From: Candidatus Heimdallarchaeota archaeon
GTDB taxonomy: Archaea > Asgardarchaeota > Heimdallarchaeia > Heimdallarchaeales > Heimdallarchaeaceae
Length of the DNA: 64,000 nucleotides
Reading direction: 5' to 3'
NCBI GenBank assembly: GCA_018238545.1
Contig: JABCTC010000013.1
Coordinates: forward strand, 1,719 to 65,718
Of this stretch, positions 31,889-59,064 are shown in pieces; the first letter of the stretch is position 1, and each line of letters starts with the position of its first letter. The notes beneath the pieces were generated by a model. It was not told where the DNA came from. It ran no database searches and saw only the letters and a program-made list of their open reading frames with translations. The translations under genes and the position numbers were made by a program.

Positions 31889-33412
31889 CTAATCGCCTGA
31901 GTCTTCATCAAACTCTGCAGATAACTGTTCATAAAACAGGTCTTCTTCCGAAACTGGAGCAACATCTTCTTCAGTTATTATTCTTGATCTGTCGTCCTCC
32001 AAATATTCCATATCTTCTAGAATTGGTTCCAGTTCTTCTTCTACTCTTGCAGAGAATTTCTCTTGTATAAAACCAAGAAGAGAGGTAAACAATAGGATAA
32101 ATATTACCAGTGGAATTAAGAGAAGAACTACACCTTCTGGTTCTAACATCTCAAGCGAGTTATAAATGGAAGGAGGATATCGTAAGAAGAATAATAAGAT
32201 GTCTGGATTTAAGATAGCGTATAGTCCCCCAAGCATTATTCCCACTCGGAATATAACTGATATTCCAACATACATGAGAGTTTTGAAAGGAGTTATAGCT
32301 ATTGATGCACCTACCAGCTTATCATCTACTTTTGGATCACTATGAATCAAACCATCATGATACCTTTGCAATCTAGCGGTCAGTTTGTCTTTTTGACCAC
32401 CAGGACGAGCAAACAGAGAATCTGAAGCTTTTTCCATGAAATAAGTTAATCCGGCTAAACCAAATTTTCTCCTGATAGAACTACTCGCACCCGTAATTGA
32501 GCTACCAGATTTTTTATCTCCACTGTCATCTGTTTCTGCTCCTTCTTCAGCTTCTCCTACCACAGGCATAGCTCGAGAGCTAGTAATCCCTAAACGGAAT
32601 TCTTTCAATCTGTCCAAAGCTCTTAAAACTCTTTCTTGTCTACTCTGAGCAGGGTTAAGAATCTTCGTCATATATGATATCTGTAAGGCTATCTCAAGGA
32701 ACAGATATGAGGCAAGCGCAATTAATACTACTTCGTTCGTGATAAGTTCTCCGAAGTTACGTGTGGGGGAAAATGAGAACCCTGGTTTGAAGAGTAACTT
32801 AACACTTCCGTAGTAGACCACTAACTGGATACAAACAAACGCAGCAGTTGCTGAGCGCATGTCTGCTCTTAATAGAAATGCAGCAACTGATACTGAAAAT
32901 AGAATTACGAATAATATTAAAATAGATGCTCTATTTGCAACTTTTAAGGTGCCTAAATTGGTGAAGTAATAAGCAAATGGAGAGAACAGTGCGTTTACAG
33001 CAGAATCACCTACACCATATAGTCCTGATGTAGTCATCTCACCCGGAGGGGAAACATTATTGAATAAATCCACTGTAATAAATGCTCTCGCACCTAAAAG
33101 AATAGCATTTGCATCTGTCCCTGAGATAAGTAGAAATATCATCAAAGGAAGAGAGAAAAGTACAAGAGCTATATTCTCAAAGAAAATGAATAGCAGAGTT
33201 AAGCTATCTAATAAATGACCATCTGGAAATTTTTCTGTGTTTGTAAAATCAATTAAATCTGCAAATTGAAGCGCAACCCAAACAACAGCTCCTATAGCGA
33301 ACAATCGTCCAATTAAATTAGTAATTGTAGTTTGAATCTTTGCTCCTCGGATTCTACGTTGAACTCCTCGGATTCCAAGTTCGATAGATTGTGTGTCTCC
33401 TAACGATTCCAT
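31889..33412 (-). CDS. polytopic membrane protein with acidic C-terminal tail (last gene of operon A; possibly SpoIIM/DUF95-like)
   Basis: ~8 TM helices. 7-bp gap to the upstream DUF58 gene. Confidence 0.5.
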   Translation of the reverse strand: MESLGDTQSIELGIRGVQRRIRGAKIQTTITNLIGRLFAIGAVVWVALQFADLIDFTNTEKFPDGHLLDSLTLLFIFFENIALVLFSLPLMIFLLISGTDANAILLGARAFITVDLFNNVSPPGEMTTSGLYGVGDSAVNALFSPFAYYFTNLGTLKVANRASILILFVILFSVSVAAFLLRADMRSATAAFVCIQLVVYYGSVKLLFKPGFSFSPTRNFGELITNEVVLIALASYLFLEIALQISYMTKILNPAQSRQERVLRALDRLKEFRLGITSSRAMPVVGEAEEGAETDDSGDKKSGSSITGASSSIRRKFGLAGLTYFMEKASDSLFARPGGQKDKLTARLQRYHDGLIHSDPKVDDKLVGASIAITPFKTLMYVGISVIFRVGIMLGGLYAILNPDILLFFLRYPPSIYNSLEMLEPEGVVLLLIPLVIFILLFTSLLGFIQEKFSARVEEELEPILEDMEYLEDDRSRIITEEDVAPVSEEDLFYEQLSAEFDEDSGD

Positions 33413-33419
33413 TTTTTTA

Positions 33420-34874
33420 TCACCCTTGACGTTGCATGCGGTTAAACTGTGCCATTATTGTAGGCAAGAAGTCATCTGGACCTACTGAGATAGATACCGC
33501 ATCATATCTTCTTAGAAGCTTGAAAAGATTCTGTCGTTCGCCTAATTGTTTCTCAACCATAGCATGTCCTACCATTTGTTCTACTGGTGAAAGTTGATGT
33601 GAAACAATTTCAAACCATGGTCCAAAGGGAGAGATAACAGTGATATTATGCTTCCTTGCTCTAGCTCTTCTGATAGCTTTAATAATTCTATCAGGATGAG
33701 ATTCTAAATCTGAAATTATTACGATGTAAGATGCACGTTTCACTCTTTGCAATAAATAGTCGATTGCAACTTCCAAGTCTGCCTCTCCTTGAGGTTTAGC
33801 GTGAGCAAGCGACTCTAGAAACTGAAATAGACGAGATCTCACTGAAGTGATATCAACCCAATTCCTTATTTTATCATCATAAATACATAGACCTACAAGA
33901 TCCTTTTTCTCGAATGCAAGATGTATAAGAAGAACAGCACTTCGGATAGCGTACTCTAGCTTAGTATTGCGAGGTAAACCTGCACCCATGCTTACTGAAG
34001 AATCTACCAATACAATCACACGTATATTCTCTTCAGATTCATATTCTCTAACCATCATCTTTCCTGACCGCGAGAAAGCTTTCCAATCTATGAATTTGAA
34101 AGGATCGCCCACCTGGTATTTTCGTATACCCCAGAAATCTGAACCCATACCTTTGATTTTCGTTCTATGAAAACCAAACAGCACGCCTAGTTGTCTCTTC
34201 TTACCAATCATTTCCAATTTCTTGATATCTTCATAACTTGGATAAACTAAGATCTCTGTTTTTGTAATTATCTCTCCTTCTGTTGCGTAAAATCCCATTC
34301 GATCTCTTATAATCACTTTAGTAGGACCTATCTCAAAAACCCCTCTTATTGGGATTCTAACGACATATCCATAAGTTATTGTTTGTCTTGGATTCAGCTG
34401 TGTAACGATAAAGTTTTCACCTAGAATTAAATCGAAAACTTCTGGTATTGCATCATAAATCTCAACGGTTGGCAACTGATTTACAGATTTGTTCCTAGCA
34501 GTTACTTCTATGTATACATAATCTCCTGCGAAAGCCTTGGGTTTTGAAACTTTTCTTGTAATTTCAATTGACTTGGGGTTAGCTCCTAGTCGGTAAAATG
34601 GCAATCCCAAAAGAACTGAAAAGATTAACATTACTCCACCGAGTATGAAAAACCAGATTAGAGTGCCTTCTGTGTCAAGATAGAAATGTAAGAAATCCAT
34701 TATCCCTATACCTTGATTATCAGCAGGAACTCCAGTCGTTGTGGAGTTTACTTGGGGGCTTACACCAAATGAATCTAACATGGTATTTAATGATAAGTAA
34801 CCCATTAATGCAAAGCCTATGCTAATCATTATGATTCCACCAAAGACTAAAAAACCGCCTCGACGTGTGAACAC
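33420..34874 (-). CDS. DUF58 (vWA-like) protein, MoxR partner, with N-terminal TM helices
   Basis: DUF58 signature KGMGSDFWGIRKYQVGDPFKFIDWKAFSRSGKMMVREYESEENIRVIVLVDSSVSM. Confidence 0.7.
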   Translation of the reverse strand: MFTRRGGFLVFGGIIMISIGFALMGYLSLNTMLDSFGVSPQVNSTTTGVPADNQGIGIMDFLHFYLDTEGTLIWFFILGGVMLIFSVLLGLPFYRLGANPKSIEITRKVSKPKAFAGDYVYIEVTARNKSVNQLPTVEIYDAIPEVFDLILGENFIVTQLNPRQTITYGYVVRIPIRGVFEIGPTKVIIRDRMGFYATEGEIITKTEILVYPSYEDIKKLEMIGKKRQLGVLFGFHRTKIKGMGSDFWGIRKYQVGDPFKFIDWKAFSRSGKMMVREYESEENIRVIVLVDSSVSMGAGLPRNTKLEYAIRSAVLLIHLAFEKKDLVGLCIYDDKIRNWVDITSVRSRLFQFLESLAHAKPQGEADLEVAIDYLLQRVKRASYIVIISDLESHPDRIIKAIRRARARKHNITVISPFGPWFEIVSHQLSPVEQMVGHAMVEKQLGERQNLFKLLRRYDAVSISVGPDDFLPTIMAQFNRMQRQG

Positions 34875-34902
34875 TATATTACACCTAATTTGCTCGTTTC
34901 AT

Positions 34903-35916
34903 TTATACTGGAACAGGTAAGTTTCGAAGTATTTCACTTACAACGATAGTTCCAGTGGTTCCTTCTAATTCTGCTTCTGGTTTCATCATTAATCTATGAG
35001 CTGTTGCTACTCTGGCAACTCTTTTCACATCATCGGGGATAACGTAATCTCTGCCTCTCATAGCTGCTACAGATTTACAGGCATTTAGAAGAGCTATACT
35101 ACATCTTGGACTACCGCCCAATGTTAGTCTAGGATCTGTTCGAGTTGCCATGACCATATCCCGGATATAATTCAGAATATCTTCATGAACAAATATCTGT
35201 GTCGCAATGCATTCTTTCATTTTAGTTATAGTCATAGGTGTTGTCACTCTGCGAACTGACTGTCGAATCTGTTTATGCTTTAATAGTATGATGTCCAACT
35301 CTTCTTCACGGGAAGGCAAGCCTACTAAAAGCTTAAACATGAACCTATCGACTTGAGCCTCGGGTAGAGGATATGTTCCTTCTTGTTCGATTGGGTTTTG
35401 GGTAGCTATAACCAAAAATGGGTCATCTAGTTTGAAAGTGGTTCCTTCTACTGTAACCTGTTTTTCTGCCATTGCTTCAAGCAATGCTGCTTGAGTTTTT
35501 GGTGGGCTTCTGTTGATTTCATCAGCCAACAAGATATTTGTGAATATTGGCCCTTTTCTCATCTTGAATGTTCCAGCTTTTGGATCATAAATGGTAGTTC
35601 CTACCACATCTGATGGCAGAAGATCTGGAGTAAATTGAACTCTTTTGAATTCACATCCAAGTGTTAGAGCAAAGCTGTTAGCCATTACAGTTTTTGCAAT
35701 ACCTGGAACGCCCTCTAGTAGACAATGTCCTCCACCGAGTAGAGCTATAAACATGTCTTCTAGAACATCGACTTTCCCAATAATTACTCGTCGCAATTCG
35801 CTATATATTTCTTCCCAGACTCTTTTAATATCCTTTGGGGTAACAACTGCTTCTGTTGTTGTCTTTGCTTTAGCTTTTCCTTTTGCTTCACTATTTTCTT
35901 CACTCATTTTTTTCAC
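34903..35916 (-). CDS. MoxR-family AAA+ ATPase
   Basis: LLEGVPGIAKT Walker A, ILLADEINRSPPKTQAALLEAMAEKQVTV (MoxR signature), DRFMFK. Confidence 0.85.
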   Translation of the reverse strand: MKKMSEENSEAKGKAKAKTTTEAVVTPKDIKRVWEEIYSELRRVIIGKVDVLEDMFIALLGGGHCLLEGVPGIAKTVMANSFALTLGCEFKRVQFTPDLLPSDVVGTTIYDPKAGTFKMRKGPIFTNILLADEINRSPPKTQAALLEAMAEKQVTVEGTTFKLDDPFLVIATQNPIEQEGTYPLPEAQVDRFMFKLLVGLPSREEELDIILLKHKQIRQSVRRVTTPMTITKMKECIATQIFVHEDILNYIRDMVMATRTDPRLTLGGSPRCSIALLNACKSVAAMRGRDYVIPDDVKRVARVATAHRLMMKPEAELEGTTGTIVVSEILRNLPVPV

Positions 35917-35949
35917 TTTTCCTTATATTATTTTTTTTTCCTTGTAATC

Positions 35950-37758
35950 TTACAATCTATCAATTAATCCTTTAATAAATGTCATATATCTCATGAACAC
36001 AAATTCGGGGATGAACTTTGGTCTATTAAGATATTCGTTTATTCTTACTAATTCATCATAAAGATCTTTAAATCTTAAGGAAGGAATTTTTGTGCTTAAG
36101 TATTCAGCTATTTCTTCTGGTGACGACATTGATTGTCTTGACACTTTTCTTAAGCCCCTTACCATCGATCTATATAGAAGACCAACAGCTTCACTATAGG
36201 CACCTGAATCAACGATTCGCCGTATTTCTCTGTCAAACCTTGATGTCCCTTCTTCTCCTCTAACCTTAGTCCATAACACTGGAGACAATCTTGTTTTCTT
36301 TGGTATCAATGGATAAGCTATTACTGCAAACAGGATAGGTATAAAGGGCGAATAAAGTGGGAACATTGACATTTCTGTGATAAACTTCATTATTGCCATT
36401 GAATATACGGAAGCGCTGTAAAACTTCTGATGAGCATGGCCTTCATCAAAGATTATAGGGATAGCTGTTCCTGCTGTTAGATTCATATCGCTTCCTAAAT
36501 AATTAAACAAGTTCCTACTAAATATTAAATTATCATTTTCTTCTGGTTTGTCAATCCATTTGTTAATGAAAATATCAGGATCACCAATCATTACTATTTT
36601 ACCGCGACCAATTGGTAAAGTCATAATTGGAGCAAACATAACATTTCCCCATTCATCAGCATCTGGAAAGGCATTACCTTCTTTTGCTGATTGGAAATCA
36701 GATTCCATCCAAGCCGATCTCGATGTGTAGAACGGAAGGAAGGGGAGAAACATATCTTCTATTTCAAAACCAAATATTTCCAATGAAATAGCTTGTAGAG
36801 GCATCCAATCGGTTCTATAAACCTCTTCGCCACTTACATTTTCAGAGTGTCTGATAGCTAAACTCAAAACTGTTCCAAACTCCATTTGCAAACCTTTGGA
36901 TATACCATCAGTCAGAGGGTTTGATGTTTCCATATTTCTCAGAAGAGGTTGAGCAGGATTTGTTGTGTATGTTTCAGCATCCATTAGAACTGATCCATTA
37001 AAGGCAAAACCTTTCAGCATTCCCAACATACTAAAGATTAATGTCTCAGGACCTGCTGTTTGATTTTCTCCACCAAATCCAAACAAATCTAATAGAGAGG
37101 GTATTGATCCGTTACTTATTTCAGCTATATCATCCCAAGCATTAAGGAGAGAGAAGAATGGATCAAAAATCTGCGCTCCCGTACCAAAATCGTCAGCTAT
37201 GACCAAACTACCGCCCTTTGCTAGGAATGTAACCAAAGATATTGTATCTATGGTGTCGTAATTTGCTGCTGGACCAATAATTGCAACTATTCCAGGATCA
37301 GGATAACGGTTAAGTATTGCTAGAGATGACATACCATTTGAAATGTTATATCCTTCGTTTTCTAAGTTAACCCTTAAACTTGATAATCCATCCCAACCTT
37401 CATTATAGATGCTGAATTTTGTTCCATATCCAGCTAAACCAACGACTCCTAGTAAAATAGGCACCACTATAATCATAAAAAGTATGAACATTGCAATGGA
37501 GTATTTTGAGAAATTTCTAACGAATTCAGACATCAAGTATAAAATCAGAATTACTATAGTTACCACTATCATCATAGCTCCAATTTCTCGAGAAAATATG
37601 TAAGCTACGATTGTTCCTACAATAGCCAAGACTTCGGCAACTATGAAGAGAACTAATTTTTTTGGAGATATTTGTATGTTTATTCTCTTCTTCTTAGCCT
37701 CTGGACTTGATCTTCTTTCTCTTGACTTGTTTCTTTGTTTGTTGTCTTGCTGGCTCAA
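35950..37758 (-). CDS. DUF4350-like membrane protein (N-terminal TMs, extracytoplasmic domain, second TM)
   Basis: VAIIGPAANYDTIDTISLVTFLAKGGSLVIADDFG parallels the paralog 50211..51497 (LIIAGGSKNYRDSEILAIDGFILQGGLAVILAGSG). Same operon position. Confidence 0.5.
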   Translation of the reverse strand: MSQQDNKQRNKSRERRSSPEAKKKRINIQISPKKLVLFIVAEVLAIVGTIVAYIFSREIGAMMIVVTIVILILYLMSEFVRNFSKYSIAMFILFMIIVVPILLGVVGLAGYGTKFSIYNEGWDGLSSLRVNLENEGYNISNGMSSLAILNRYPDPGIVAIIGPAANYDTIDTISLVTFLAKGGSLVIADDFGTGAQIFDPFFSLLNAWDDIAEISNGSIPSLLDLFGFGGENQTAGPETLIFSMLGMLKGFAFNGSVLMDAETYTTNPAQPLLRNMETSNPLTDGISKGLQMEFGTVLSLAIRHSENVSGEEVYRTDWMPLQAISLEIFGFEIEDMFLPFLPFYTSRSAWMESDFQSAKEGNAFPDADEWGNVMFAPIMTLPIGRGKIVMIGDPDIFINKWIDKPEENDNLIFSRNLFNYLGSDMNLTAGTAIPIIFDEGHAHQKFYSASVYSMAIMKFITEMSMFPLYSPFIPILFAVIAYPLIPKKTRLSPVLWTKVRGEEGTSRFDREIRRIVDSGAYSEAVGLLYRSMVRGLRKVSRQSMSSPEEIAEYLSTKIPSLRFKDLYDELVRINEYLNRPKFIPEFVFMRYMTFIKGLIDRL

Positions 37759-38146
37759 CTAATTCTACACCTTGTTCTCTTATTCCACGGAAACATATAT
37801 CTAATCTCTGGATGGCTTCTTGATAGTCATCATATTGAATTTCCGTGTCAGTATATCTAGCAATTTCAAAGGATGTAAGATACTCGTCCATAACTTCTGT
37901 GGAGATGTTAGCTCTATTAGCAACTGAAAAACCAAATTCTCTTCCAGTTTCATATGGTGCACGGGACATATCTAGTAACCCGTGAGCAATGTTGGCTAAT
38001 CCTCCAAAGGAAGCTATAACGGCACCTTTGTAATCTTGTCTTTGCTCAAATATTCTTACATCTGCCATAACAGATGTAAACATCTGGTTTAATGATTTCA
38101 CTTGTTTTCTTTTCTTGAAGAACCCAAATATACCTCTATGACTCAA
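37694..38146 (-). CDS. small DUF4129-like cytoplasmic protein
   Basis: ...EIARYTDTEIQYDDYQEAIQRL resembles the DUF4129 xARY motif found in 51494..52288 and the tail of 38136..41813. Start may be internal (the ORF overlaps its neighbours). Confidence 0.4.
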   Translation of the reverse strand: MSHRGIFGFFKKRKQVKSLNQMFTSVMADVRIFEQRQDYKGAVIASFGGLANIAHGLLDMSRAPYETGREFGFSVANRANISTEVMDEYLTSFEIARYTDTEIQYDDYQEAIQRLDICFRGIREQGVELVEPARQQTKKQVKRKKIKSRG

Positions 38147-41100
38147 TTTTCATTTCACCTACTTCTATTTTATCTACTATTTTTAATAATGCACGTAATC
38201 CGGAATTGAAGTCATTTTCTGTAATTTCTTCATGTCCGTATCGTGCTTTTTCGAAATACGAGAGAAGTGTGTACATTATCTCTCGTTCAATTTTACCTTT
38301 TTCTGAAAGCAATCGCGAAAACTCCCAAGGAGTTTGACTCTTATATCTTGGTAAGTCGAAGAATTCTCGACCAATACCTTCTACCACTGTCCAAGTTTTT
38401 AGTAACCCTTCTTGATATCTTCCTTCCAATCCGTCTCTTTTAATATCTTCTATTATCTCTTTTAGATAATCACGTAATCGTCTTCTGAAAGTTTGTTTCT
38501 TTGCATAAGTTTGCAGAGAGTGTCTATTAAACCACAAGAAAAGAAGTGCTACAACTGCCACAATACCTCCTATAACACCTCCAATTATTGCTCCAATACT
38601 ACCTGTTATTCCCCCTGGCGGAGGAGCTGTAGGACTAGCATTGATAATAACTAAATTCACTGGAGTTGTGGATCTTGAATTTTCAACAGCATCCACTGCT
38701 TCAATATTATATTCCAAATTATAATTACCATAATCGGGTAGTTCTATATCTGAGAGATCAAATGTTGCTTCAAATACATCAGAGACTCCAACGCGGGTCA
38801 TAGTGATATCATAATCTACTTCATTGTAAGTAATATGTAATATCACCTCAGATACTGAAGTAAGAATATCTGTCACTGTTGCAGAGAATTCAAGTGTCGT
38901 ATCAGGGGTTATATATGAGATGTTTCCCGCTACAGCTACATTACTAATAGATGGTGCATCATTATCAACAGCTTGCACAGTCTGCATTGGACCCGTGAGA
39001 GAATTTTTTGTTGGTATTGCCGTATCATAGGCAATATAATACCACTCATAGTGGTAATTATACTGAAGCGTAAGTTGATAGAACCATTCATTGGTACTGG
39101 GAACATTTATCATCGAAGCCACTATATAATCGGTCTGATTTTCAAGTGTAACTAAATTGTGACTATTAACATGGAGTGTGACATTGTACATACCGCTCCA
39201 AACAATACTATCATTGATGAATACGGTAATGTTGATATACGGGGTTAGGGGGTTGCCAGAGGGGATAATAGTCGGCACTTGCTCCTCAAATGGTTCAACA
39301 AAATCTCCTAACTGGAATTCATTGGGAGAAGATTGTGAATATAATAAGCCTTCCCAACCAAAGTTAGCATCATAGTAAAGAGGAACAACAGTCTGTTTAG
39401 CACCGAATTCATCTAGTCCATGACCTGCGAAATCTATTATTTTAATATAATATAAGACATAATATTTTGATTCTGAAACTGTAGCATTGAGAATACCTCT
39501 GTACTGATCCCCACCAACATGCCATAGCGCAAAAGATTGCCACCCACCAATTGATGTGTTACCTACAGGTTCTAAATACTCAAAGAAAAACTCAACTGAT
39601 CTAATTCCTGTTCCAACATCAGTAACATAAATATCAAATTGAATATTGAAATATGGATCGTGAATTCCCGGATCGTAAGGATCAGGTGTTACAACCTCAC
39701 CTGTAACAATAGGTACGTTGTTATCTGGTCCATAAATATCTAGTGTATGAGTTATGGTAGTAGCTGGGGCATAATCACCACCAGAAGCTACTAACGACAG
39801 ACCTGGATATGCATGAGTGTCCTGAAGTATTGTTAGAAAATTAAGGGCAGTAAAATCAACCCAATTCTTCGTTGAAGTGATTAGGAGATTGGATGTTTCA
39901 ACATCGCCACCATTTGTAAGTGTAAGGAAAATATTAACCTTTTCTGGTAATCTTAACCATTGGTCAGTAACCGTCAGAGTATAATTGTGAGTTGCATCAA
40001 GAGCTCCCCAGAAAGTACTGTTAAATACAGTAGATGTTGTGCCATCTAAAATATTTGCTCCACTAGGATCTGTTAGAGTTAATATTAGTGCAAAATAAGT
40101 GTTGAACACAGAATTATTTAAAGCTCCAGCAGCAACAGCATAACGGTAATCTGCTCCTGAAACAGCTAGAGCTGTAACAGTTATTGTTTTTGTTTGTGTC
40201 TCATTAGTAGAATAATCTGGAATGACAGTTTCAATGTGTCTGGATCCTGTTGCAACAGAATAAGGTTGAACGATTGAATCAGGGAAGTTCAGTTGGAAAC
40301 TAGAAGATTGAGCAACATTGCTATATTCGTCATATAATGCAACGGTATAACCTATAGTATTCCCAGTTGTATAATATCTCACATTATCATCCAAATCCAG
40401 ATCAATTCTAGTTATATTAACTGCCAAATGTCCTTCTAAACTATCATGAGTTAAAGTTGATCCAACAAATTCATCTCCGTTAGGATCTATTAAGAAACTA
40501 AACAGTAACGCATCTGTTATGTCAGATATGTTGTTACCATCAAAGTAAAATGTGTCTTGAATCTCAGCAGTAGGATTAGATGTTACATAATCATTTGTAT
40601 AAATGGTCCCCTCACCTGCTCCAGAGATTGTTAATCTGATAGTTGAATCAGGTTCTAAGCCCGATTGTGAAGTTAGATTTGCATAAACTGTAACATATGT
40701 ACCTCCAATGATTTCAGTTGGTATGTTTATTTTACTTGGTCCCACTATGAAGTAAGCATCAACAACTACTTGATTCTCTGTAGCATCTACAATAATTTCA
40801 TGGATCAACCTATCATTTTGAATGTCACTAGTTCCTTCGTCTGCAAAGAAATTAAATCCTAGTTGACTAATATCATAATACGCTTCATATGTGACACCAT
40901 CAACTAAAACAGGGGCAGTATTTGTATACAGGTCTTGATTAGAGGCAAATGTTCTGTTAGTATCAATATGCGTGCCATCAGCGTCCCAGTTGACCTTAAG
41001 AGTGTATTCTGTTCCAGTTGGATCTATAACTGTATCATTATCAAATAAAATGCGAGTGTTAAATGAATAAGAGGCGCTTGGATTTGTAACATCAACAGTT

Positions 41101-47030: not shown

Positions 47031-47035
47031 TGTTA

Positions 47036-47869: not shown

Positions 47870-49248
47870 GATGCTCGCCTCATTGCTTCTTGAACCAGTC
47901 TCTGTGTTGGAGAATATTTTTTCATTAATCTGAATAATGATAGGATGATATTATCGTCATATCCAAATACATCCACATAATCTCCACGAATTGAATACAG
48001 GAGTTGACGTAATTCAATTTCCCTCTTTCTATATTCATCACTCACAATACTTGGAAAAACATCTTGTAATATTTCTCCATAATTCATATCTTCTGTCCTA
48101 TCCAACATCCAATCTTGTGAGGATAAGATATTGAAATGCATGGTAGCAAAATTAACAAAAATCACCCTACTCCCCATGGTTTGGAGAAGATGTATGCCTT
48201 GCAGTTTTTTTACTAAATCTCCTTCTAAATCCGAAAATATTATAGCGATAGAATGCAAAACATTATTGTTTTTGGTAAATTTAACAGCGTTAAGGAAACT
48301 ACTATGAACACCAGTAGCTTCAATATCATATAGGTTGAGCATAAGTCTTAGCTCATGTTTTCCTACTTGTGGTATTATGTATTTTTGCACATTTTCGGAA
48401 TAAGCAACCACGGCCAAATCATGATTGGTGCCTTTAATCAGCGAACATAATTCTACTACTGAAGATAACGCGTACTCGAACTTGGGTCCAAACATTGTAC
48501 TGCTAAGATCCAGATAAATCAAGAAGTGCAAGTTTCTTTGGTCTTCAAATTCTCTTGAAATCAATTTATCATGTCTCGCAGTTGCATACCAATCAATATG
48601 TTTTAGTTGATCTCCGGGTAAATAATCTCGAAGCGCAAAAAATTCATCACCTCGTCCCTTTACTCTTTGAGCAAATTCATGAACCATTTTCAACAATAGT
48701 TCTTTCTTTGTCTTCCATGGAATATTAATACGCGGCCTCTGTGGCAGTATCTTGATTTGTTGTGTATCTTTCAGTATTCGCTTATGTTTGAAGAGATACT
48801 GGAATGAACCAACGGAAATTTCAATAGGACCAATTTCTCCATTTCCTCTTCTAGAGGCAAGCAATAACCAAACAATTTTCGTCTTCTTTTGTGGAAGTAA
48901 TTTGATTAGTATTGTCTCTGGTTTGTCTATACTCTTAAAATGGAATGAAAAACGAAGACTAATTTTCGTGAGAATTGTTCTTCTAGATGGGTTTGTCAAT
49001 TCAACTGCTACAGCTAATAAACCTCTACTTCTCATAAAATCCTTTGAACAACTCATTTTTGTATTGAAAGAATAAGTATGTGAAAATATGAAAGAAATAA
49101 AAGTGGAAGTAATAACTACTAAGAATAAAACACCAGGAACTATAAGAAGTAAAGTATCTATTGCTAAGCCTATTATCACAAATAGACTACCGAATAGAAT
49201 GAAAATTTTACCATTCTTTGTAAGTTCAAAGTGTCTTTCTTCTTCCAT
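47866..49248 (-). CDS. DUF58 (vWA-like) protein with N-terminal TM hairpin
   Basis: RVKGRGDEFFALRDYLPGDQLKHIDWYATARHDKLISREFEDQRNLHFLIYLDLSSTM. Confidence 0.65.
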   Translation of the reverse strand: MEEERHFELTKNGKIFILFGSLFVIIGLAIDTLLLIVPGVLFLVVITSTFISFIFSHTYSFNTKMSCSKDFMRSRGLLAVAVELTNPSRRTILTKISLRFSFHFKSIDKPETILIKLLPQKKTKIVWLLLASRRGNGEIGPIEISVGSFQYLFKHKRILKDTQQIKILPQRPRINIPWKTKKELLLKMVHEFAQRVKGRGDEFFALRDYLPGDQLKHIDWYATARHDKLISREFEDQRNLHFLIYLDLSSTMFGPKFEYALSSVVELCSLIKGTNHDLAVVAYSENVQKYIIPQVGKHELRLMLNLYDIEATGVHSSFLNAVKFTKNNNVLHSIAIIFSDLEGDLVKKLQGIHLLQTMGSRVIFVNFATMHFNILSSQDWMLDRTEDMNYGEILQDVFPSIVSDEYRKREIELRQLLYSIRGDYVDVFGYDDNIILSLFRLMKKYSPTQRLVQEAMRRAS

Positions 49249-49269
49249 TTGAAATCTCTGCCTTTTGTT

Positions 49270-50214
49270 TCATATCACAACTTCTACATCTGAAAGAATA
49301 TTTTCAATAATCTCAGAAATTCGGATTTGTTCGATTTCTGCCTCTGGAGAGAGCATCAATCTATGGTTCATAACAGGATAGAATATAGATTTGATATCAT
49401 CAGGTTCAACAAAATCTCTCCCCCTAATTGCAGCAATAGACCGACTCAAAGTAAGTAAAGCTATTGAACCCCTTGGACTTGCTCCAAGTGCTAAGGAAGG
49501 AATCGAACGTGTTGCAATTACTAGTTTTGCAATATACTCAAGAATCTGGTTACTTACAGTTACGTTTTTCTCAATTTCTGTTATTAATTTGAGAATGGTT
49601 TTTTGATCAGTAACTATCTCAATATCTGCAAACATCTTTTCTCTCTTTTTAACAAGCATCTCAACTTCTCCATTAAGAGAAGGAGGATAAACAGGAATCT
49701 TAACTAAAAATCTATCAATCTGAGCTTCTGGAAGAGGATAGACTCCTGTACTTTCGATTGGGTTCTGAGTTGCTATAACCATAAATGGTTCCGGAAGCTT
49801 GAACGTTTGATTACCTGAAGAAACTTGTTTCTCCTGCATTGCTTCTAACAAAGCTGATTGTGTTTTGGGTGGCGCTCTGTTTATTTCATCTGTAAGTAGT
49901 ATACTGGTGAAAACTGGTCCTTCAATGAATCTAAAGGAACTTGTTTCTCTTTCGTATATGTTACCTCCTGTGATATCAGCTGGCATCAAATCGCTTGTAA
50001 ACTGAATTCTTTTGAAACCCATTTTGATAACTTCAGCTAAAGTACTAGCCATCAATGTTTTTGCTATTCCCGGGACACCTTCTAGCAGAACGTGTCCTTC
50101 ACTTAGAAGAGAAGCAAACATCAGTTCGATAACATTTTCATTACCCACTATTCGTTTTTTCATTTGTTCCATTATTTTTTCAAAAATATCTTTTGCTTCT
50201 TGCACTTTTGTCAT
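49270..50214 (-). CDS. MoxR-family AAA+ ATPase (paralog)
   Basis: LLEGVPGIAKT, ILLTDEINRAPPKTQSALLEAMQEKQVS, DRFLVK. Confidence 0.85.
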   Translation of the reverse strand: MTKVQEAKDIFEKIMEQMKKRIVGNENVIELMFASLLSEGHVLLEGVPGIAKTLMASTLAEVIKMGFKRIQFTSDLMPADITGGNIYERETSSFRFIEGPVFTSILLTDEINRAPPKTQSALLEAMQEKQVSSGNQTFKLPEPFMVIATQNPIESTGVYPLPEAQIDRFLVKIPVYPPSLNGEVEMLVKKREKMFADIEIVTDQKTILKLITEIEKNVTVSNQILEYIAKLVIATRSIPSLALGASPRGSIALLTLSRSIAAIRGRDFVEPDDIKSIFYPVMNHRLMLSPEAEIEQIRISEIIENILSDVEVVI

Positions 50215-51497
50215 TTAAATCGTCCTCTTTTTTGTATCTCTTCAAGCATTTTGAAGAGTGAAAGGAAAGTTTTTTGATCTAATTTCCTTTTAAACGCTAT
50301 TTCGAATAACTCTTTTTCCTCCTCTGTGAATTTCTCCAATTGAATATAACTTGCCTTTTTTGTAAGATAATACTGATACGCTTTCTTAGGATAAAGCTCA
50401 TACTGGAAATACAAGTTTGATAGAAACTGTTCTTCAATCGTTGGTTTTATTGGAGATCCATAAGTATCGTACAACTCCCTCTCCCTTGACCAGATCCTAT
50501 CTGATAAAAATTTCTTATAAGTTTCCTTTGGTTTGAATGTTTCTCTAAATCTTGGAGTGAAATAATATAATGTTAAAACAACCAAAACAAGTAAGAAAAT
50601 AAAGACTTGTGTTTTTGATAACAGAATTATTGTTCCATAAGATTGGTTAATCATCCCCTCAGTTGTTGAAAAGGGCCATCTTTTATGACTTTCCTCAAAA
50701 CAGACAAGTCTTTCTTCTCCTGAAGAATAATACCCAATAAGATAGAGTGCGAGATTAATATTCCCAAAACCTTGACTATAAAGATCGTTAGTTAGAAAAC
50801 TTGGAGAAGAAATAACAATAACGAATCCAAGCCCTCTTTTGAGAACTGTACCTACTTGCAAACTTGCTGTAGGTTCAGAATCAATATTCCAAATACCATC
50901 TTGGCTCTCGTCTAGAAATGCGGTGCTATAGGTACTTATCCCAAGGAGTTCTGTCTGTGTTGAACTCTCTGCTATAAAAGACAGTTCTCTAGCTTCTATC
51001 ATGCATAGGCTAGTGTTTGTTTCAATTGGTGAATTTAACATTATTATTTCTGGTGTTTTATAATAATAGGTTGTTTCTAATATGGTTGAACTAGAAAGAA
51101 AAACTCCGAAGTGTTTTGCTAGAATATTGGTAGGACCAGAGCCAGCCAATATTACTGCTAAACCCCCCTGTAAAATAAAACCATCTATTGCTAATATTTC
51201 TGAATCCCGATAGTTCTTTGAGCCCCCAGCTATAATAAGAGTTGATGATTTTGGAAGTTTAATAATAGGGTCTGTTGATAATATCGTTCTTGTAGTATTG
51301 TAACCAGATTCAAGAAGTAAACTATTGAAATATGACATTCCACCAGGTCCTGTATTGTTTATAGAATATGGAGGTTGTCCGCTTGTGATGTTGATACTAA
51401 GGGGGAGAATGATTACTAAGAATATTAGTAAGGTTTGGATAAGCATTTTGAACAATGGAGAATATTTCTTTGAAAATATAACAGGTGTAAGCTTCAT
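50211..51497 (-). CDS. DUF4350-like membrane protein (paralog of 35950..37758)
   Basis: Same TM-ectodomain-TM-cytoplasmic-tail architecture. Shared motif block with the operon A copy. Confidence 0.5.
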   Translation of the reverse strand: MKLTPVIFSKKYSPLFKMLIQTLLIFLVIILPLSINITSGQPPYSINNTGPGGMSYFNSLLLESGYNTTRTILSTDPIIKLPKSSTLIIAGGSKNYRDSEILAIDGFILQGGLAVILAGSGPTNILAKHFGVFLSSSTILETTYYYKTPEIIMLNSPIETNTSLCMIEARELSFIAESSTQTELLGISTYSTAFLDESQDGIWNIDSEPTASLQVGTVLKRGLGFVIVISSPSFLTNDLYSQGFGNINLALYLIGYYSSGEERLVCFEESHKRWPFSTTEGMINQSYGTIILLSKTQVFIFLLVLVVLTLYYFTPRFRETFKPKETYKKFLSDRIWSRERELYDTYGSPIKPTIEEQFLSNLYFQYELYPKKAYQYYLTKKASYIQLEKFTEEEKELFEIAFKRKLDQKTFLSLFKMLEEIQKRGRFK

Positions 51498-52288
51498 TGT
51501 TCATCTTCCTCGCTAATTCGTTGAATAATTTCGATATCTGTTTGAGCCGCACTCAAACCTTTTACTGCTTCAAGATCTCTGATGAAATCCAACAAATCTT
51601 TCCTTTTCATCTGTTGTTTTTTATATCTTGCAACATAGAAAGTTTGTATCATTGAATTTAAGTAGGGAAGAATATTTGGCAAATCAAGTGACTTTGCAAA
51701 TTCCTTGGGTGTAAGGTAAGTTTCTCTGCTTATCCCTAGAATTTTCTTCATGTTCTCATCAAGTTGATGATAACCGAAAATTATACCTTCCGTATATTTT
51801 CCTTCTCTCAAATATTCTCTAAGTACTTCCGTAAGTGTTCTTATTTGTGTTCTGAATTTTTCTCTTCGAGATTGAAGTGTACTTCCTGTAACAATGGATC
51901 TAGGCGCAGACCTAGTTTCCTCAGTCTTTCTTCTAAGAAATAGAAAAACGATTATGAGTACTATAATTACTGCAACAGTTATGGGAATAACTTGAGCGGG
52001 GACAAGTCCCTCACTTCCACCTTGTGGATTATTGGGTGGAACAGTAGGAGTATTAGTTGGATATGGGGGAGTAGAGGGGTCAGTTGTAAGAGGGTCTGTT
52101 GTGGGGGCAGGAGGAGAGAAAGAAGTGGTAGAAAGCGTACTTATAGAATAATCATCGATACCGTAGTATGTTTCTTGAGTACTGTTTACTAAGATAAATA
52201 TTAGTATACAAGCGAGAATTATAAACAACCTAATATTAATAAATTTCTTGAAATCAATCTTCACTTGTATCACCTTTTTGAACTTCAT
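51494..52288 (-). CDS. DUF4129-like protein with N-terminal TM and Pro/Thr-rich linker
   Basis: TM, then PPAPTTDPLTTDPSTPPYPTNTPTVPPNNP linker, second TM, C-terminal ...IQTFYVARYKKQQMKRKDLLDFIRDLE. Confidence 0.5.
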   Translation of the reverse strand: MKFKKVIQVKIDFKKFINIRLFIILACILIFILVNSTQETYYGIDDYSISTLSTTSFSPPAPTTDPLTTDPSTPPYPTNTPTVPPNNPQGGSEGLVPAQVIPITVAVIIVLIIVFLFLRRKTEETRSAPRSIVTGSTLQSRREKFRTQIRTLTEVLREYLREGKYTEGIIFGYHQLDENMKKILGISRETYLTPKEFAKSLDLPNILPYLNSMIQTFYVARYKKQQMKRKDLLDFIRDLEAVKGLSAAQTDIEIIQRISEEDEQ

Positions 52289-53258
52289 CTATTACTAGTT
52301 TGCTTTGACGAAGGAAAGCGTAAATTTTGCACAAAGGCCAATATCTGCTTATGCACACTTGATACTTATGAGCTGCTGTAAGATATCCCAAATAAGCGCA
52401 TCTTCCATCTTCATAATATATACAAGTATCAGTTTTTACTCTCCTTAGGATTAAATTAACTGTTCTATTCAGATAGACCATCGATAAAGCACTAAATTGT
52501 CTTTCGCTTCTTTTTGGAGGTTCGTCCAGATCGAAGATTGTTTTAACAGACAATGGCATATCTGGCAAAAGAAGATGTGAGTAAGACACCTTTGAACCTT
52601 TCTTGGTCGTTGATATACCAGATAGAAGTTTACCTAACTGAATACCAATTGCACCTCCAAGTCCACTTACTATTGTTAGCGAAAATGCAAAGATGATCAG
52701 AAAGCCTAAGAAGTAATTACTTGCGAAGAATGCGGAGACATTTGTAGAGCCTAATGAAGTAAATAGAACTATTTGAGAGAGGTAAAGAAGAATAAAAAAG
52801 AGAAGAGAAAAAACAACAGTTGGAATGATGAGATCGTGAGCTTCTTCTCTCCACATAATTCCTACAATTATACCAGAAAGGAGAAAGGGGATGAAAGCTG
52901 TAATCATATAATTTGTGATTAATTCGAAAGCGTCTGTTCCTTCAAACGCAAATGTAAAGGGTAGAATCAAAATGGTATCAGGAGACCAAATAACAGTAGT
53001 TATAGTGAAAAGCTTCTGGAGTATATGATAAAGGACACCAAAAAATATCGAAAAACCATATCCAATTGCCATGTAAGTTGAGATTCTTAGAATAAGTTTT
53101 GTGATATACTCACGTTTTCCGCTATTTTTTAGATGAGGAAAAACCAATTTGAACATTACTCCCCTTAAAGTCATCTTGAGGGGAGGGGTACCTCCTTCAA
53201 CCTTTGGACCACGATCAACAGGAAGGGGAGGGCGTCGGCTAATTACCATATTATTCAC
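52254..53258 (-). CDS. membrane protein with C-terminal Cys-cluster
   Basis: ~6 TM. C-terminal CIYYEDGRCAYLGYL...CISRYWPLC. Confidence 0.45.
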   Translation of the reverse strand: MNNMVISRRPPLPVDRGPKVEGGTPPLKMTLRGVMFKLVFPHLKNSGKREYITKLILRISTYMAIGYGFSIFFGVLYHILQKLFTITTVIWSPDTILILPFTFAFEGTDAFELITNYMITAFIPFLLSGIIVGIMWREEAHDLIIPTVVFSLLFFILLYLSQIVLFTSLGSTNVSAFFASNYFLGFLIIFAFSLTIVSGLGGAIGIQLGKLLSGISTTKKGSKVSYSHLLLPDMPLSVKTIFDLDEPPKRSERQFSALSMVYLNRTVNLILRRVKTDTCIYYEDGRCAYLGYLTAAHKYQVCISRYWPLCKIYAFLRQSKLVIDEVQKGDTSED

Positions 53259-54959
53259 CTATAAAATTACCAATCTTACTCCTTTTGATGTTTTTAATAG
53301 GAAGTAAACACTTGCAGAAACTAATACAAGTGTGCATAACATACCTATGATTCCATAGACCATATGTAAGATAGTGATTATCAAAAGTAATGAAAAAACT
53401 ATCATATACAAAGAGGTCACGATTATTGATATAGCGACAATTGAAAGAAGGTTTATTGAACTTATAATAGCTTTCACTCTATTCTTTTTGTATCTGTGCC
53501 ATACCACGGTTACGAATATTGCAATTATAATAGAAAGTAAGAATAGAGTATAACCAAGGAAAGATACTGTATCTTCAATAGTTGCAAATGTAAAAATAAA
53601 ACTTATTAACATCCCAACAGCCAGAATACGAGTAAACCCAACTGCGATTGATGAGTAAAATGGTGGAGAGGAGGAACTCATCTTTTCATATAATGCATCA
53701 ACTTCTGTTCCACAGGACCAGCAAATACGTGTAAATGACGGCAGTACTTGATTGCAATTTCGACACTGTATTTTAGGGAAGGACCAACAATTCAGACAAA
53801 ATTGACCATTATATACTGGTGTTCGGCATTGTGAACACACCATTAAATTAGTTTTTTCATCATAAAGAGGTTCTATTTCTTTCATTTTCTCAAGATTTTC
53901 CTTTGAATGATGTAACTGAGATGAAGTATCTGAACATTCTTTCCCAATGTGTTGAGTAAAACATTTAGGACAAAAGCTAGGGACATAAAAAATTACCACC
54001 AAAATAAATATCCCAAACAAAGCATAAGATAAAATCCCTAGGATGGAATAGATTAGCGACACGGTTTCCACATTTGTGTTAAATTTTGTATTGTAATTCC
54101 ACAAACTATGGATAAAAATGCTTAGAGCTAGAAACAGTATAACTACTATAGCTCTCGTGAATTTTGGAAGCTTATTGCGATATAAGAATGCCAACCCTAA
54201 ACCTGTAGCAGCCAACATAGTTGTTACAGTGTGTAAAGGGTAGATGCATCGTTTAAGAACTAATAAATCAATAACTGTTTCAGGTGAAGAAGATCGAGAA
54301 TAGGAAAGAAATTGTTCAAATAAATCAAACCAAGCTCCAAAAAAACCACCTACAATAACAAAAATTCTGAATGAGGGGGTAAGCCTAGTGTGAATCGATC
54401 GTTTAGAGTTGAGATTCAATCTTACATAGTTTCCTAGCAAGATAATTATGGGGAAAATCTTAGCTATTTCTTCAACTATAGGGATAATAAATACGTAGAA
54501 GATATAATGTATGATATGATACACTTCAGGAAATGAATCTATCGATGAGAAAAACCCAGAAATAATGGAAACTAGAGTAAAAGACTTGTTCTCTATGACT
54601 ACAGCAAAATAAGCTGAAAGAACCCCCATCACCAAGAGAAGAGAAAAGAGTTTCTTAATTAATTTGGTTTCAAGTTGAGTGCTTGTTATACTAAATAGTA
54701 AATAAAGGCAGGCTACCCAAAGAATGAAGAATACAATAATTAGGAGAATTATAAGAATTGGAAAATAGATAGAAGTTTCATATTTAATAACAAAAGTTAC
54801 TAGGAAATAAGCCAGAATTGCTATTACAGCTAAAATTGAGATTTTAGCTAGTGTTGAGAAACTCAAGATGCGTTTGTGTATTGGTTCAACAATTAACAAA
54901 TCTTCAACTGAAGGAACTGATTTTTTTTTCTTAGCTGAAATATGAATCATTGTTTCCAA
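53259..54959 (-). CDS. polytopic membrane protein with internal multi-zinc-ribbon cytoplasmic insert (first gene of operon B)
   Basis: >=10 TM helices. Insert CPKCFTQHIGKEC ... CSQCRTPVYNGQFCLNCW ... CRNCNQVLPSFTRICWSCG (three to four CxxC pairs). Confidence 0.55.
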   Translation of the reverse strand: METMIHISAKKKKSVPSVEDLLIVEPIHKRILSFSTLAKISILAVIAILAYFLVTFVIKYETSIYFPILIILLIIVFFILWVACLYLLFSITSTQLETKLIKKLFSLLLVMGVLSAYFAVVIENKSFTLVSIISGFFSSIDSFPEVYHIIHYIFYVFIIPIVEEIAKIFPIIILLGNYVRLNLNSKRSIHTRLTPSFRIFVIVGGFFGAWFDLFEQFLSYSRSSSPETVIDLLVLKRCIYPLHTVTTMLAATGLGLAFLYRNKLPKFTRAIVVILFLALSIFIHSLWNYNTKFNTNVETVSLIYSILGILSYALFGIFILVVIFYVPSFCPKCFTQHIGKECSDTSSQLHHSKENLEKMKEIEPLYDEKTNLMVCSQCRTPVYNGQFCLNCWSFPKIQCRNCNQVLPSFTRICWSCGTEVDALYEKMSSSSPPFYSSIAVGFTRILAVGMLISFIFTFATIEDTVSFLGYTLFLLSIIIAIFVTVVWHRYKKNRVKAIISSINLLSIVAISIIVTSLYMIVFSLLLIITILHMVYGIIGMLCTLVLVSASVYFLLKTSKGVRLVIL

Positions 54960-59042: not shown

Positions 59043-59064
59043 CTCTTCAAGAACTTGAAGAGAT
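59043..59064. terminator. 10-bp perfect hairpin 33 nt downstream of the cofE stop
   Basis: tctcttcaag-aa-cttgaagaga. No strong T-tract on the cofE strand, so this is weak as an intrinsic terminator. Confidence 0.25.

Follow-up and report, generated by a model that had tools for sequence, protein, structure and literature searches.

Two adjacent MoxR-DUF58 operons with different lead proteins in a Heimdallarchaeaceae genome

A stretch of 64,000 nucleotides from a Candidatus Heimdallarchaeota archaeon (assembly GCA_018238545.1, contig JABCTC010000013.1, positions 1,719 to 65,718; hereafter the window) carries two strings of seven genes in which a MoxR-type AAA+ ATPase and a DUF58 protein with a vWA domain are accompanied by DUF4350, DUF4129 and polytopic membrane proteins. 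Operon A (44917 down to 31889) is headed by A1, a membrane protein whose transglutaminase-like (TGL) domain is predicted to be a pseudo-enzyme, and operon B (54959 down to 47036) by B1, an apparently active intramembrane protease of the PrsW family. Tentatively, and with a confidence somewhat short of even, they are regarded here as two dedicated MoxR/vWA machines that would remodel or assemble the co-encoded envelope proteins from the cytoplasmic side of the membrane.

Few uncharacterised envelope clusters of bacteria and archaea are as widespread as the MoxR-DUF58 operons with DUF4350, DUF4129 or TGL partners, and this kind of system is already known from comparative genomics (Makarova et al. 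2015; Zhang & Aravind 2012). New here are the variant led by PrsW, the family-wide loss of the TGL triad, the contrast between the metal-ion-dependent adhesion sites (MIDAS) of the two vWA domains, the evidence for a cytoplasmic vWA domain and the conserved tandem arrangement. Although the locus does not by itself reveal the function, it offers a natural comparison within one genome: a seemingly dead peptidase-fold ectodomain together with an intact MIDAS, versus an apparently live protease together with a degenerate one. This comparison separates a common engine (MoxR, tethered DUF58, DUF4129 tail and DUF4350) from exchangeable features.

Gene content and homology of the two operons

All 14 open reading frames (ORFs) lie on the minus strand between 31889 and 54959, in two strings of seven, where a first reading made without database searches (the sequence-only reading) had placed them. 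The ORF list gives operon A as A1-A7 and operon B as B1-B7, separated by thyX:

A1, 41810..44917, minus strand: polytopic membrane protein with a K-rich N-terminus and about four transmembrane (TM) helices by hydropathy.
A2, 38136..41813, minus strand: protein of 1,225 aa with a signal/TM segment, an ectodomain of about 1,040 aa, a TM helix (1075-1093) and a DUF4129 tail.
A3, 37694..38146, minus strand: small soluble DUF4129 protein of 150 aa, paralog of the A2 tail.
A4, 35950..37758, minus strand: DUF4350 protein whose GldG/GIFT-like ectodomain lies between N-terminal TM segment(s) and a further TM helix, after which comes a basic tail predicted to be cytoplasmic.
A5, 34903..35916, minus strand: MoxR-type AAA+ ATPase (AAA_3 219.6 bits, AAA_lid_2 80 bits).
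A6, 33420..34874, minus strand: DUF58 protein, predicted to be cytoplasmic, in which an N-terminal TM hairpin precedes an Ig-like domain and a vWA domain that has an intact MIDAS.
A7, 31889..33412, minus strand: polytopic protein with about seven TM helices, a conserved segment (D331-K365) predicted to be cytoplasmic and an acidic C-terminal tail.
thyX, 45243..47030, plus strand: Thy1 (194.9 bits) with LAGLIDADG_3 and Intein_splicing matches.
B1, 53259..54959, minus strand: PrsW-family protease with about eight TM helices, three zinc ribbons predicted to be cytoplasmic and a C-terminal extension of four TM helices.
B2, 52254..53258, minus strand: membrane protein with three to four TM helices and a conserved C-terminal Cys/His cluster.
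B3, 51494..52288, minus strand: bitopic DUF4129 protein whose short Pro/Thr-rich ectodomain (about 50 aa) lies between a signal/TM segment and a TM helix, with a tail predicted to be cytoplasmic.
B4, 50211..51497, minus strand: DUF4350 protein whose ectodomain lies between a signal/TM segment and a TM helix and which ends in a basic tail.
B5, 49270..50214, minus strand: MoxR-type AAA+ ATPase (AAA_3 211.9 bits, AAA_lid_2 77.4 bits).
B6, 47866..49248, minus strand: DUF58 protein (60.1 bits) with an N-terminal TM hairpin and a vWA-like domain with degenerate MIDAS.
B7, 47036..47869, minus strand: polytopic protein with five to six TM helices and an acidic C-terminus, of a narrow family.

Read 5' to 3', the junctions measure -4, -11, -65, +33, +28 and +7 nt in operon A and 0, -35, -4, -4, +21 and -4 nt in operon B, three of the overlaps hinging on the choice of start codon (that of A4 is uncertain, its ortholog alignments beginning at residue 82). 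The tight packing described earlier holds, although the statement that nearly all junctions overlap by 4 nt or lie within 25 bp was slightly generous.

Sequence comparisons indicate that four of the five gene pairs claimed as a common core (DUF4129, DUF4350, MoxR and DUF58) are homologous and stand in the same order. By BLASTP, the MoxR proteins A5 and B5 are 50% identical (E = 3e-108), the DUF58 proteins A6 and B6 23% (E = 2e-15) and the DUF4350 proteins A4 and B4 25% over 100 aa (E = 6e-6); the C-terminus of A2 matches B3 with E = 0.002 and A3 matches the A2 tail with E = 3.5e-7. Pfam searches (cut-offs of 30.4 bits for DUF4350, 24.8 for DUF4129, 23 for Transglut_core, 23.5 for PrsW-protease and 27 for DUF5518) recovered DUF58 and DUF4350 above threshold in both operons, the latter (PF14258) with 48.6 bits in A4 and 32.6 bits in B4, where ABC_transp_aux and IFT52_GIFT also match below their cut-offs. 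DUF4129 exceeds its cut-off in A2 only (residues 1153-1208, 29.8 bits), with 18.8 bits in A3 and 16.1 bits in B3. A local hidden Markov model (HMM) of DUF4129, built iteratively from 30 tails in 160 MoxR loci fetched for comparison (fetched loci or contigs are designated by L-numbers), matches residues 1102-1221 of A2 (2e-38), A3 (2.7e-38) and B3 (1.6e-32), scores that are partly circular because the A2 tail, A3 and B3 were among its seeds. NCBIfam gave no usable match for ten of the operon proteins.

The same DUF4129-DUF4350-MoxR-DUF58 order recurs in Planctomycetes, in Methanomassiliicoccales/Thermoplasmata and in marine metagenome contigs, where a polytopic protein with five to eight TM helices usually trails it. 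The shared gene order is thus not a matter of chance, and the coincidental synteny that the sequence-only reading had considered as an objection to itself was not borne out.

The fifth pair does not belong to the homologous core. A7 and B7 show no BLAST similarity, and the profile-profile comparison of their alignments (26 and 9 sequences, respectively) gives a probability of 1.8%. Neither of them matches any Pfam or NCBIfam family, SpoIIM (PF01944) included, and hhalign comparisons of thin profiles, which besides A7 and B7 took in true SpoIIM and the polytopic proteins found downstream at other loci, were negative throughout. A7 and B7 agree only in position and in general topology (a hydrophilic middle between two groups of TM helices, then an acidic tail), and the designation SpoIIM-like is not supported; a true SpoIIM is found upstream, at a different position, in planctomycete versions of the string. 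The A7 family is almost confined to Heimdallarchaeaceae. Residues 331-366 of A7 show an invariant hydrophilic motif across 26 homologs (DSLF..PGG....LT.RLQRYH..L...D...D.KL.G), which matched no known family and falls in a part of the AlphaFold2 model with low confidence.

The Walker motifs of both ATPases, as read from the translations, are intact: A5 has GVPGIAKT as Walker A and LLADEINR as Walker B, and the Walker B common to A5 and B5 is (A/T)DEINR. The closest solved structure to A5 is 2r44_A (E = 6e-81), followed by the AAA domains of midasin (1e-11). A6, which has no relative in the PDB, matches DUF58 with 120.5 bits and VWA_2 with 42 bits (DUF11 weakly), and hydropathy places its TM segments at residues 9-27 and 72-90. 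The DxSxS motif of A6 (D291, S293 and S295) is kept in its orthologs, the family pattern being D-S/A-S-x-S. The MIDAS position of the B6 family reads D-L-(S/G)-S-(T/N/A) and not the canonical DxSxS; across 180 DUF58 proteins the three positions of this motif are conserved in 100%, 82% and 78%. Neither operon encodes a second vWA protein detectable with Pfam.

The Ig-like domains of the two DUF58 proteins (33420-34874 and 47866-49248) give weak DUF11 and BatD matches, and that of the DUF58 protein of an uncultured archaeon (L004, 8491-9819) matches TRAP_beta, the translocon-associated protein beta (27.6 bits against a cut-off of 22.4). These matches probably reflect generic beta-sandwich similarity.

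A1 contains a large region of about 870 aa, acidic and rich in glycosylation sequons, which includes the TGL domain at about residues 436-560. Its Transglut_core match (23.9 bits) is just over the cut-off, and PF01841 is carried by more distant family members in precomputed annotations; the family comprises 38 proteins, all from Heimdallarchaeaceae. Twenty-five of them were aligned to an active-type TgpA-like protein from L034, which has a Cys-His TGL (Transglut_core 81 bits) and a C-terminal DUF4129 and belongs to a classic MoxR-DUF58-TGL operon. The position of the nucleophilic Cys corresponds to S480 in A1 (S in 18 members, T in six, P in one) and that of the catalytic His to Y524 (Y in 19, F in six), and the Asp equivalent, placed by motif inspection, is Q548, invariant in 25/25 members. 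The entire Cys-His-Asp triad is lost family-wide and the domain is predicted to be a pseudo-enzyme, which agrees with the earlier description of A1 as a pseudo-transglutaminase. Pfam matched neither DUF3488 nor DUF4129 in A1, and PDB sequence and profile searches with A1 and the 25-member alignment gave spurious TM matches only. No TGL domain was found with Pfam in operon B.

A2 had been taken for giant surface cargo. The fusion of DUF4129 to a giant ectodomain had been correctly seen, but A2 itself carries the DUF4129 tail and shares its architecture (signal/TM segment, ectodomain, TM helix and DUF4129 tail) with B3; it is a DUF4129 subunit with an enlarged ectodomain, not cargo. FN3 domains were not detected in A2.

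B1, in turn, is more than the multi-zinc-ribbon membrane protein that had been described, since it matches PrsW-protease (PF13367) with 42.5 bits (DZR weakly). In an alignment of 24 sequences, down to 36% identity, residues E163, E164 and K167 (EExxK), H243, and H284 and N288 (HxxxN) are invariant, and so are those of the zinc ribbons (C330/C333/H337, C375/C378/C388/C391 and C399/C402/C413/C416). Source annotations of B1 family members read 'PrsW family glutamic-type intramembrane protease', and B1 is apparently an active member of this family. No candidate anti-sigma-like substrate is encoded near it. B2 matches DUF5518 below the cut-off (20.4 bits), and its C279, C287, H297, C302 and C310, invariant in four orthologs, form a metal-binding-like cluster. 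The lead genes of the two operons do differ, as the term 'cargo-swapped' had implied, but this term hides a regularity, since both encode polytopic proteins with a peptidase fold (dead TGL versus PrsW).

The operons had also been called duplicated, which is right as to homology but not as to a recent event. A5 and B5 are each 50% identical to MoxRs from planctomycetes, Bdellovibrio and Thermoplasmata, as they are to one another, and in a distance analysis covering 162 MoxRs B5 comes no higher than 60th among the neighbours of A5. In a neighbour-joining tree, indicative only because it carries no bootstrap values, both belong to a clade of 40 members in which DUF4350/DUF4129-linked loci are enriched; there A5 joins L082 and then a marine/Thermoplasmata group and B5 branches apart. 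A recent local duplication was rejected on the MoxR distances and this unbootstrapped tree; being as far from each other as from bacterial MoxRs, A5 and B5 are more probably ancient paralogs. Operons A and B would then be old paralogous subtypes of one system family, or separate acquisitions.

Conservation in Heimdallarchaeaceae

The closest relatives of the operon A MoxR (86-88% identical) come from metagenome-assembled genomes of Candidatus Heimdallarchaeota/Heimdallarchaeaceae, as expected from the earlier attribution of the DNA to a likely Asgard archaeon (an exact-sequence search with A5 yielded no record), and the A1 and B1 families have entries from Heimdallarchaeaceae only, including Ca. 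Heimdallarchaeum endolithica. Operon A is complete and syntenic (thyX-A1..A7-EF-2) in L001 and L027, and its order is kept in the complete genome of Ca. Heimdallarchaeum endolithica (L161, a locus that begins within A1, so that the gene upstream of A1 is outside view). Operon B is complete in L081, L163, L164, L165 and L166. The order B-thyX-A1, with an intein-free thyX, is present in L164, L165 and L166 and is implied as well by the NCBI locus tags on a 238.8-kb contig. An intein-free thyX also adjoins A1 in L001, L027 and L163; in the latter, operon A is inverted, yet it still adjoins thyX and operon B. Operons A and B thus stay adjacent around thyX across Heimdallarchaeaceae, even after inversion, and thyX is probably a conserved spacer gene that is not part of the system.

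In the window, thyX (45243-47030, plus strand) encodes 595 aa in total and contains an intein with a LAGLIDADG homing endonuclease. Its orthologs (L001, L027, L081, L163-L166) have 231-241 aa, or align with residues 1-74 and about 400/438-590, and lack the intein, which therefore appears to be a recent acquisition in this lineage.

Conservation is uneven along the operons. Ortholog identity is 86-88% for the MoxRs A5 and B5 (86% for B5 in L081), 82-87% for A6 and 84-86% for A3 (L001, L002 and L027), and falls to 40-41% for A1 and A2 (75% for the A2 tail alone) and to 45-46% for B1, B2 and B3. Exposed or lead proteins diverge fast, whereas the cytoplasmic machinery is conserved (69-88%). The locus also records surface proteins that are conserved in, and specific to, Heimdallarchaeaceae, a lineage with a poorly known cell envelope.

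Two further genes accompany operon B upstream of B1:

TPR protein, 55507-56229, minus strand: 240 aa, with TPR_12, TPR_2 and TPR_1 matches below their cut-offs.
82-aa ORF, 55119-55367, minus strand: beside the TPR gene.

Both are found upstream of B1 in every relative examined (L081, L163, L164, L165 and L166), the small ORF lying on the opposite strand in L163. The TPR protein is 69-78% identical in these relatives, which is above the conservation of B1-B3, and the intergenic gaps of this stretch are 139 and 159 nt. By analogy with the TPR proteins of Bat-type MoxR operons, the two products may be accessory to operon B.

Predicted topology and possible mode of action

The operon proteins fall into two classes by composition. 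The ectodomain-like class (residues 180-1000 of A1, residues 30-1065 of A2 and the central parts of A4 and B4) is acidic, with 3-5% K+R and 1.2-1.7 NxS/T sequons per 100 aa. For instance, K+R and sequons per 100 aa amount to 3.3% and 1.3 in A1 residues 180-1000 and to 2.9% and 1.7 in the A2 ectodomain, and the A4 ectodomain has 4.9% K+R. The cytoplasmic-like class (MoxR, DUF58 past its TM hairpin, the DUF4129 and DUF4350 tails and the A7 middle) resembles EF-2 in having 11-20% K+R and nearly no sequons, with K+R of 18.9% in the A2 tail, 19.8% in the A4 tail and 14.8% in A6 residues 99-484. Hydropathy shows TM segments at the N-terminus and late in the sequence of A4 and B4, the late one preceding a tail of about 110 aa. 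These classes suggest that the vWA domain of DUF58 and DUF4129 would be cytoplasmic, on the ATPase side of the membrane, and that the dead TGL domain of A1 would be extracellular. The conserved acidic residues of DUF4129, in its T..EF and FE.A.Y motifs, are candidate ligands for the MIDAS site.

On this basis a mode of action can be proposed. The sequences show directly the gene content, homology, motif status, conservation and synteny on which it builds, while the topology, all protein contacts and the direction of action are what we infer. In each operon a cytoplasmic MoxR hexamer would work with the DUF58 protein as adaptor, tethered to the membrane by its TM hairpin and exposing its Ig-like and vWA domains to the cytoplasm. 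The motor would engage the DUF4129 tails, the basic DUF4350 tail and the polytopic A7 or B7 with its acidic C-terminus, and ATP hydrolysis would drive the assembly, holding or remodelling of a complex that spans the membrane. In operon A a large glycoprotein assembly would make up the outer face of this complex, formed by the ectodomains of A2, A1 and the GldG/GIFT-like DUF4350 protein, with the dead TGL domain of A1 as a binding module. In operon B a similar motor, with its degenerate MIDAS, would be coupled to the apparently active PrsW-type protease, which might allow the ATP-dependent presentation or control of a membrane substrate for cleavage. A chaperone-like system acting on surface structures had been suggested by the sequence-only reading and is still the most reasonable idea, the contacts on which it depends being conjectural.

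Several points weigh against this proposal. The topology is based on hydropathy and amino-acid composition only, and the four or so TM helices of A1, with a cytoplasmic N-terminus, would put its large domain inside the cell, in contradiction with its composition. Makarova et al. (2015) thought that the vWA protein is likely secreted. A metal-mediated contact cannot be a general feature, because no canonical MIDAS is present in B6. The possibility that the DUF4350 cytoplasmic tail is a cryptic DUF4129 is unproven (HMM E = 0.019, hhalign probability of only 0.6%). Finally, the searchable literature holds no experiment on any DUF4350, DUF4129 or DUF58 protein.

Different functions have been or could be proposed for operons of this kind. 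Zhang & Aravind (2012) proposed membrane-proximal ATP-dependent proteolysis, in which the vWA protein would recruit a substrate, MoxR would unfold it and a membrane protein of peptidase fold would cleave it. Both lead proteins, A1 and B1, have such a fold, B1 keeps all the PrsW catalytic motifs across 24 diverse homologs, and the fetched loci include, in L034, a classic trio of MoxR, DUF58 and a TgpA-like protein with a Cys-His TGL. However, across the operon A family Ser/Thr, Tyr/Phe and Gln stand in place of the triad and the domain is ectodomain-like in composition, so that a substrate unfolded in the cytoplasm could not reach it; besides, the TG domain of Pseudomonas aeruginosa TgpA is described as periplasmic and as having transglutaminase activity (PMC3507681). 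Operon A thus argues against a simple model in which an AAA+ unfoldase feeds a TGL peptidase in the TGL-bearing version, and the proteolytic model, which fits operon B at most, is unlikely for the pair, though worth keeping in mind. Somewhat less credit is given to the novel secretion system predicted by Makarova, Galperin & Koonin (2015), where the DUF4350/GldG-like, polytopic and Ig-like proteins would constitute an export apparatus powered or regulated by MoxR and the large surface proteins would be substrates or structural parts. The prediction covers the same type of neighbourhood and relates DUF4350 to GldG of the gliding ABC system linked to the type 9 secretion system, a relationship reflected in the ABC_transp_aux match on B4; moreover, operon A encodes the large secreted or anchored proteins A1 and A2. 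Nevertheless, no component matches a known channel, secretin or translocase family in Pfam or NCBIfam. A2 and B3 each carry a signal/TM segment and would thus go through Sec; MoxR ATPases are established as chaperones that remodel, not as motors of translocation; and operon B would export almost no mass, the B3 ectodomain having only about 50 aa.

A role in transmembrane sensing or signalling seems improbable. The variable ectodomains of A1, A2 and DUF4350 would bind ligands, the DUF4129 tails and MoxR-DUF58 would transmit or reset the signal, and the PrsW protein of operon B would be a site-1 protease, as in the Bacillus RsiW/sigma-W pathway. The arrangement of a variable ectodomain, a TM helix and a conserved cytoplasmic domain in A2, B3 and many DUF4129 proteins (147-747 aa) would suit this function, as would the PrsW family membership of B1 and the bifidobacterial PFNA cluster, which ties MoxR-DUF58-TGase to a Ser/Thr kinase (PMC8430577), but neither the operons nor their conserved flanks yielded a transcription factor, a kinase, an anti-sigma-like protein or any other output domain. 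Even slighter is the chance that both operons are one Heimdallarchaeaceae-specific unit, in which the operon B protease would process, shed or quality-control the operon A glycoprotein complex and each part would have its own MoxR-vWA motor; if true, a counterpart of the midasin/dynein AAA+ proteins, a vWA partner, a TGL and a GIFT-like domain would be combined in the archaea closest to eukaryotes. Hardly credible is a role in biological conflict or defence against viruses, as in MoxR-vWA 'ternary' systems (Kaur, Burroughs, Iyer & Aravind 2020). Secondary Pfam bpMoxR matches (29.7 bits in A5 and 46.5 bits in B5) and the fast evolution of the ectodomains would be compatible with it, but AAA_3 scores far higher (212-220 bits), neither a beta-propeller nor an effector domain is present, and the neighbourhood (EF-2, thyX and F420 genes) is a stable part of the core genome in all relatives and not a variable island. 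A defence system was rejected on this synteny together with a PADLOC search that yielded no significant match.

Neighbouring genes and comparison with known systems

Other features of the window lie outside the two operons:

589-aa ORF, 56682-58451, minus strand: no Pfam match.
95-aa ORF, 56452-56739, minus strand: overlaps the 589-aa ORF; Cas12f1-like/TnpB TNB zinc-ribbon (29.3 bits).
Ras/Arf/Roc-family small GTPases, 62365-62952 and 16797-17714, both minus strand: Ras 155 and 49.6 bits, respectively.
1,022-aa ORF, 21304-24372, minus strand: no Pfam match.
542-aa ORF, 15091-16719, minus strand: no Pfam match.

The stretch between cofE and the TPR gene (56230-59096, about 2.7-2.9 kb), where the first two ORFs lie, is missing in L164, L165 and L166, in which no more than 80-160 nt separate these genes; the insertion of a mobile element or a large TnpB-like gene with a frameshift may account for it. 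Small GTPases of the Ras/Arf/Roc type are typical 'eukaryotic signature' genes of Asgard archaea, and that at 62365-62952 is syntenic in L164, L165 and L166. Ca. H. endolithica has, at the position corresponding to the 1,022-aa ORF, a gene for 1,063 aa that also lacks a Pfam match. Both operons are flanked by F420 genes (25361-27560 and 59097-61010: a cofG/cofH-like radical SAM pair, cofE and FrhB-like). On the unrelated contig L004 a MoxR-DUF58-A7-like trio also adjoins cofE and cofD (11446-13865); this recurrent neighbourhood may be inherited synteny or may have functional meaning.

Among the 160 MoxR loci surveyed, DUF58 is present in 137, DUF4350 in 24 and DUF4129 in 25. DUF4129 proteins elsewhere have 147-747 aa and one or two TM helices, so that a variable ectodomain on a constant tail is a general pattern. 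The trio of the uncultured archaeon L004 (MoxR, DUF58 and an A7-like protein) is minimal and suggests that the polytopic protein is a direct partner. In this sample, profiles of PrsW and of the A1-type TGL match only Heimdallarchaeaceae loci, and linkage of PrsW to MoxR is seen only in the Heimdallarchaeaceae contig L081. Nothing specific was found in the literature on Asgard or Heimdall archaea and MoxR.

The module had been thought chiefly bacterial, a view that does not survive the archaeal arCOG01314 (DUF4350) neighbourhoods described by Makarova, Galperin & Koonin (2015). They are widely distributed in archaea and contain a COG0714 MoxR, an Ig-like+vWA DUF58 protein, membrane or S-layer-like surface proteins and a DUF4350 protein that has a signal segment and, at its C-terminus, a TM helix. 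Proteins named in the paper include TON_1832 of Thermococcus onnurineus and PAB1295 of Pyrococcus abyssi (both arCOG01314) and MMP0360 of Methanococcus maripaludis (arCOG02884). Operons A and B share the DUF4350 protein, followed by the adjacent MoxR and then by DUF58, together with further membrane and large surface proteins. The S-layer-like families COG4743/pfam07760 match none of the 14 proteins, although A1 and A2 have large acidic, sequon-rich ectodomains. The DUF4129 subunits, the pseudo-TGL and PrsW are absent from the readable part of its component list, and a search of the paper for 'transglutaminase' gave no mention. Here, in addition, composition would place the vWA domain in the cytoplasm, and two copies are kept in tandem.

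The MoxR-vWA-TGL operons that Zhang & Aravind (2012; PMC3495828) proposed as membrane-proximal degradation systems were linked by these authors, through MoxR and TGL, to dynein, midasin and ciliary TGL proteins, and such modules were proposed to have seeded ciliary and nuclear machinery. The tgpA gene of P. aeruginosa is essential and co-transcribed with PA2875 and PA2874; the TG domain of its product is annotated as periplasmic and purified residues 180-544 show transglutaminase activity in vitro (PMC3507681). Operon A shares with the MoxR-DUF58-TgpA/YebA operons a MoxR, a DUF58 protein and a polytopic Transglut_core protein whose large domain begins at about residue 180. However, bacterial DUF4129 is the C-terminal domain of the TGL protein (L034), whereas here it is found on A2 and A3; the operon A triad positions hold Ser, Tyr and Gln, DUF3488 is undetected, and DUF4350, a giant ectodomain protein and A7 are added. 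The PFNA cluster of Bifidobacterium (pkb2-fn3-aaa-atp-duf58-tgm; PMC8430577) likewise has a large surface protein, MoxR, DUF58 and a membrane transglutaminase-like protein in fixed order, but the Ser/Thr kinase, phosphatase and FHA genes have no counterpart here, where DUF4350 and DUF4129 subunits are present.

The central string is the same in the planctomycete/actinobacterial-type arrangement SpoIIM-(4-TM protein)-DUF4129-DUF4350-MoxR-DUF58 (L006, L028, L048 and L078). The planctomycete versions have a true SpoIIM (111 bits) and the 4-TM protein upstream, whereas here a different polytopic protein follows DUF58. The Bat/aerotolerance operons (MoxR-DUF58-BatA-BatB-TPR) differ in their BatA/BatB-type TM-vWA proteins, absent here; only a TPR protein is conserved upstream of B1.

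In Bacillus subtilis, PrsW is the site-1 protease of the anti-sigma factor RsiW in the sigma-W envelope-stress pathway. B1 has the PrsW domain (MEROPS M82) with the invariant EExxK, H and HxxxN, but the same polypeptide also carries three zinc ribbons and four additional TM helices, and its gene lies in a MoxR-DUF58 operon, with no anti-sigma/sigma pair.

Together with vWA partners, MoxR ATPases remodel particular target complexes (PMC13036017, PMC9976466). In NorQ/NorD, for instance, a finger of the vWA protein enters the pore of the AAA+ (MoxR) ring and force is applied via this partner (PMC13036017). The operons described here share with NorQ-NorD, RavA-ViaA and CbbQ-CbbO the combination of a MoxR-class AAA+ protein with a vWA partner, and the likely role of those pairs is to remodel a dedicated target complex. 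However, their targets are soluble or respiratory enzymes and their action involves metal insertion, whereas here the vWA protein is predicted to be tethered to the membrane and the presumed clients are envelope proteins.

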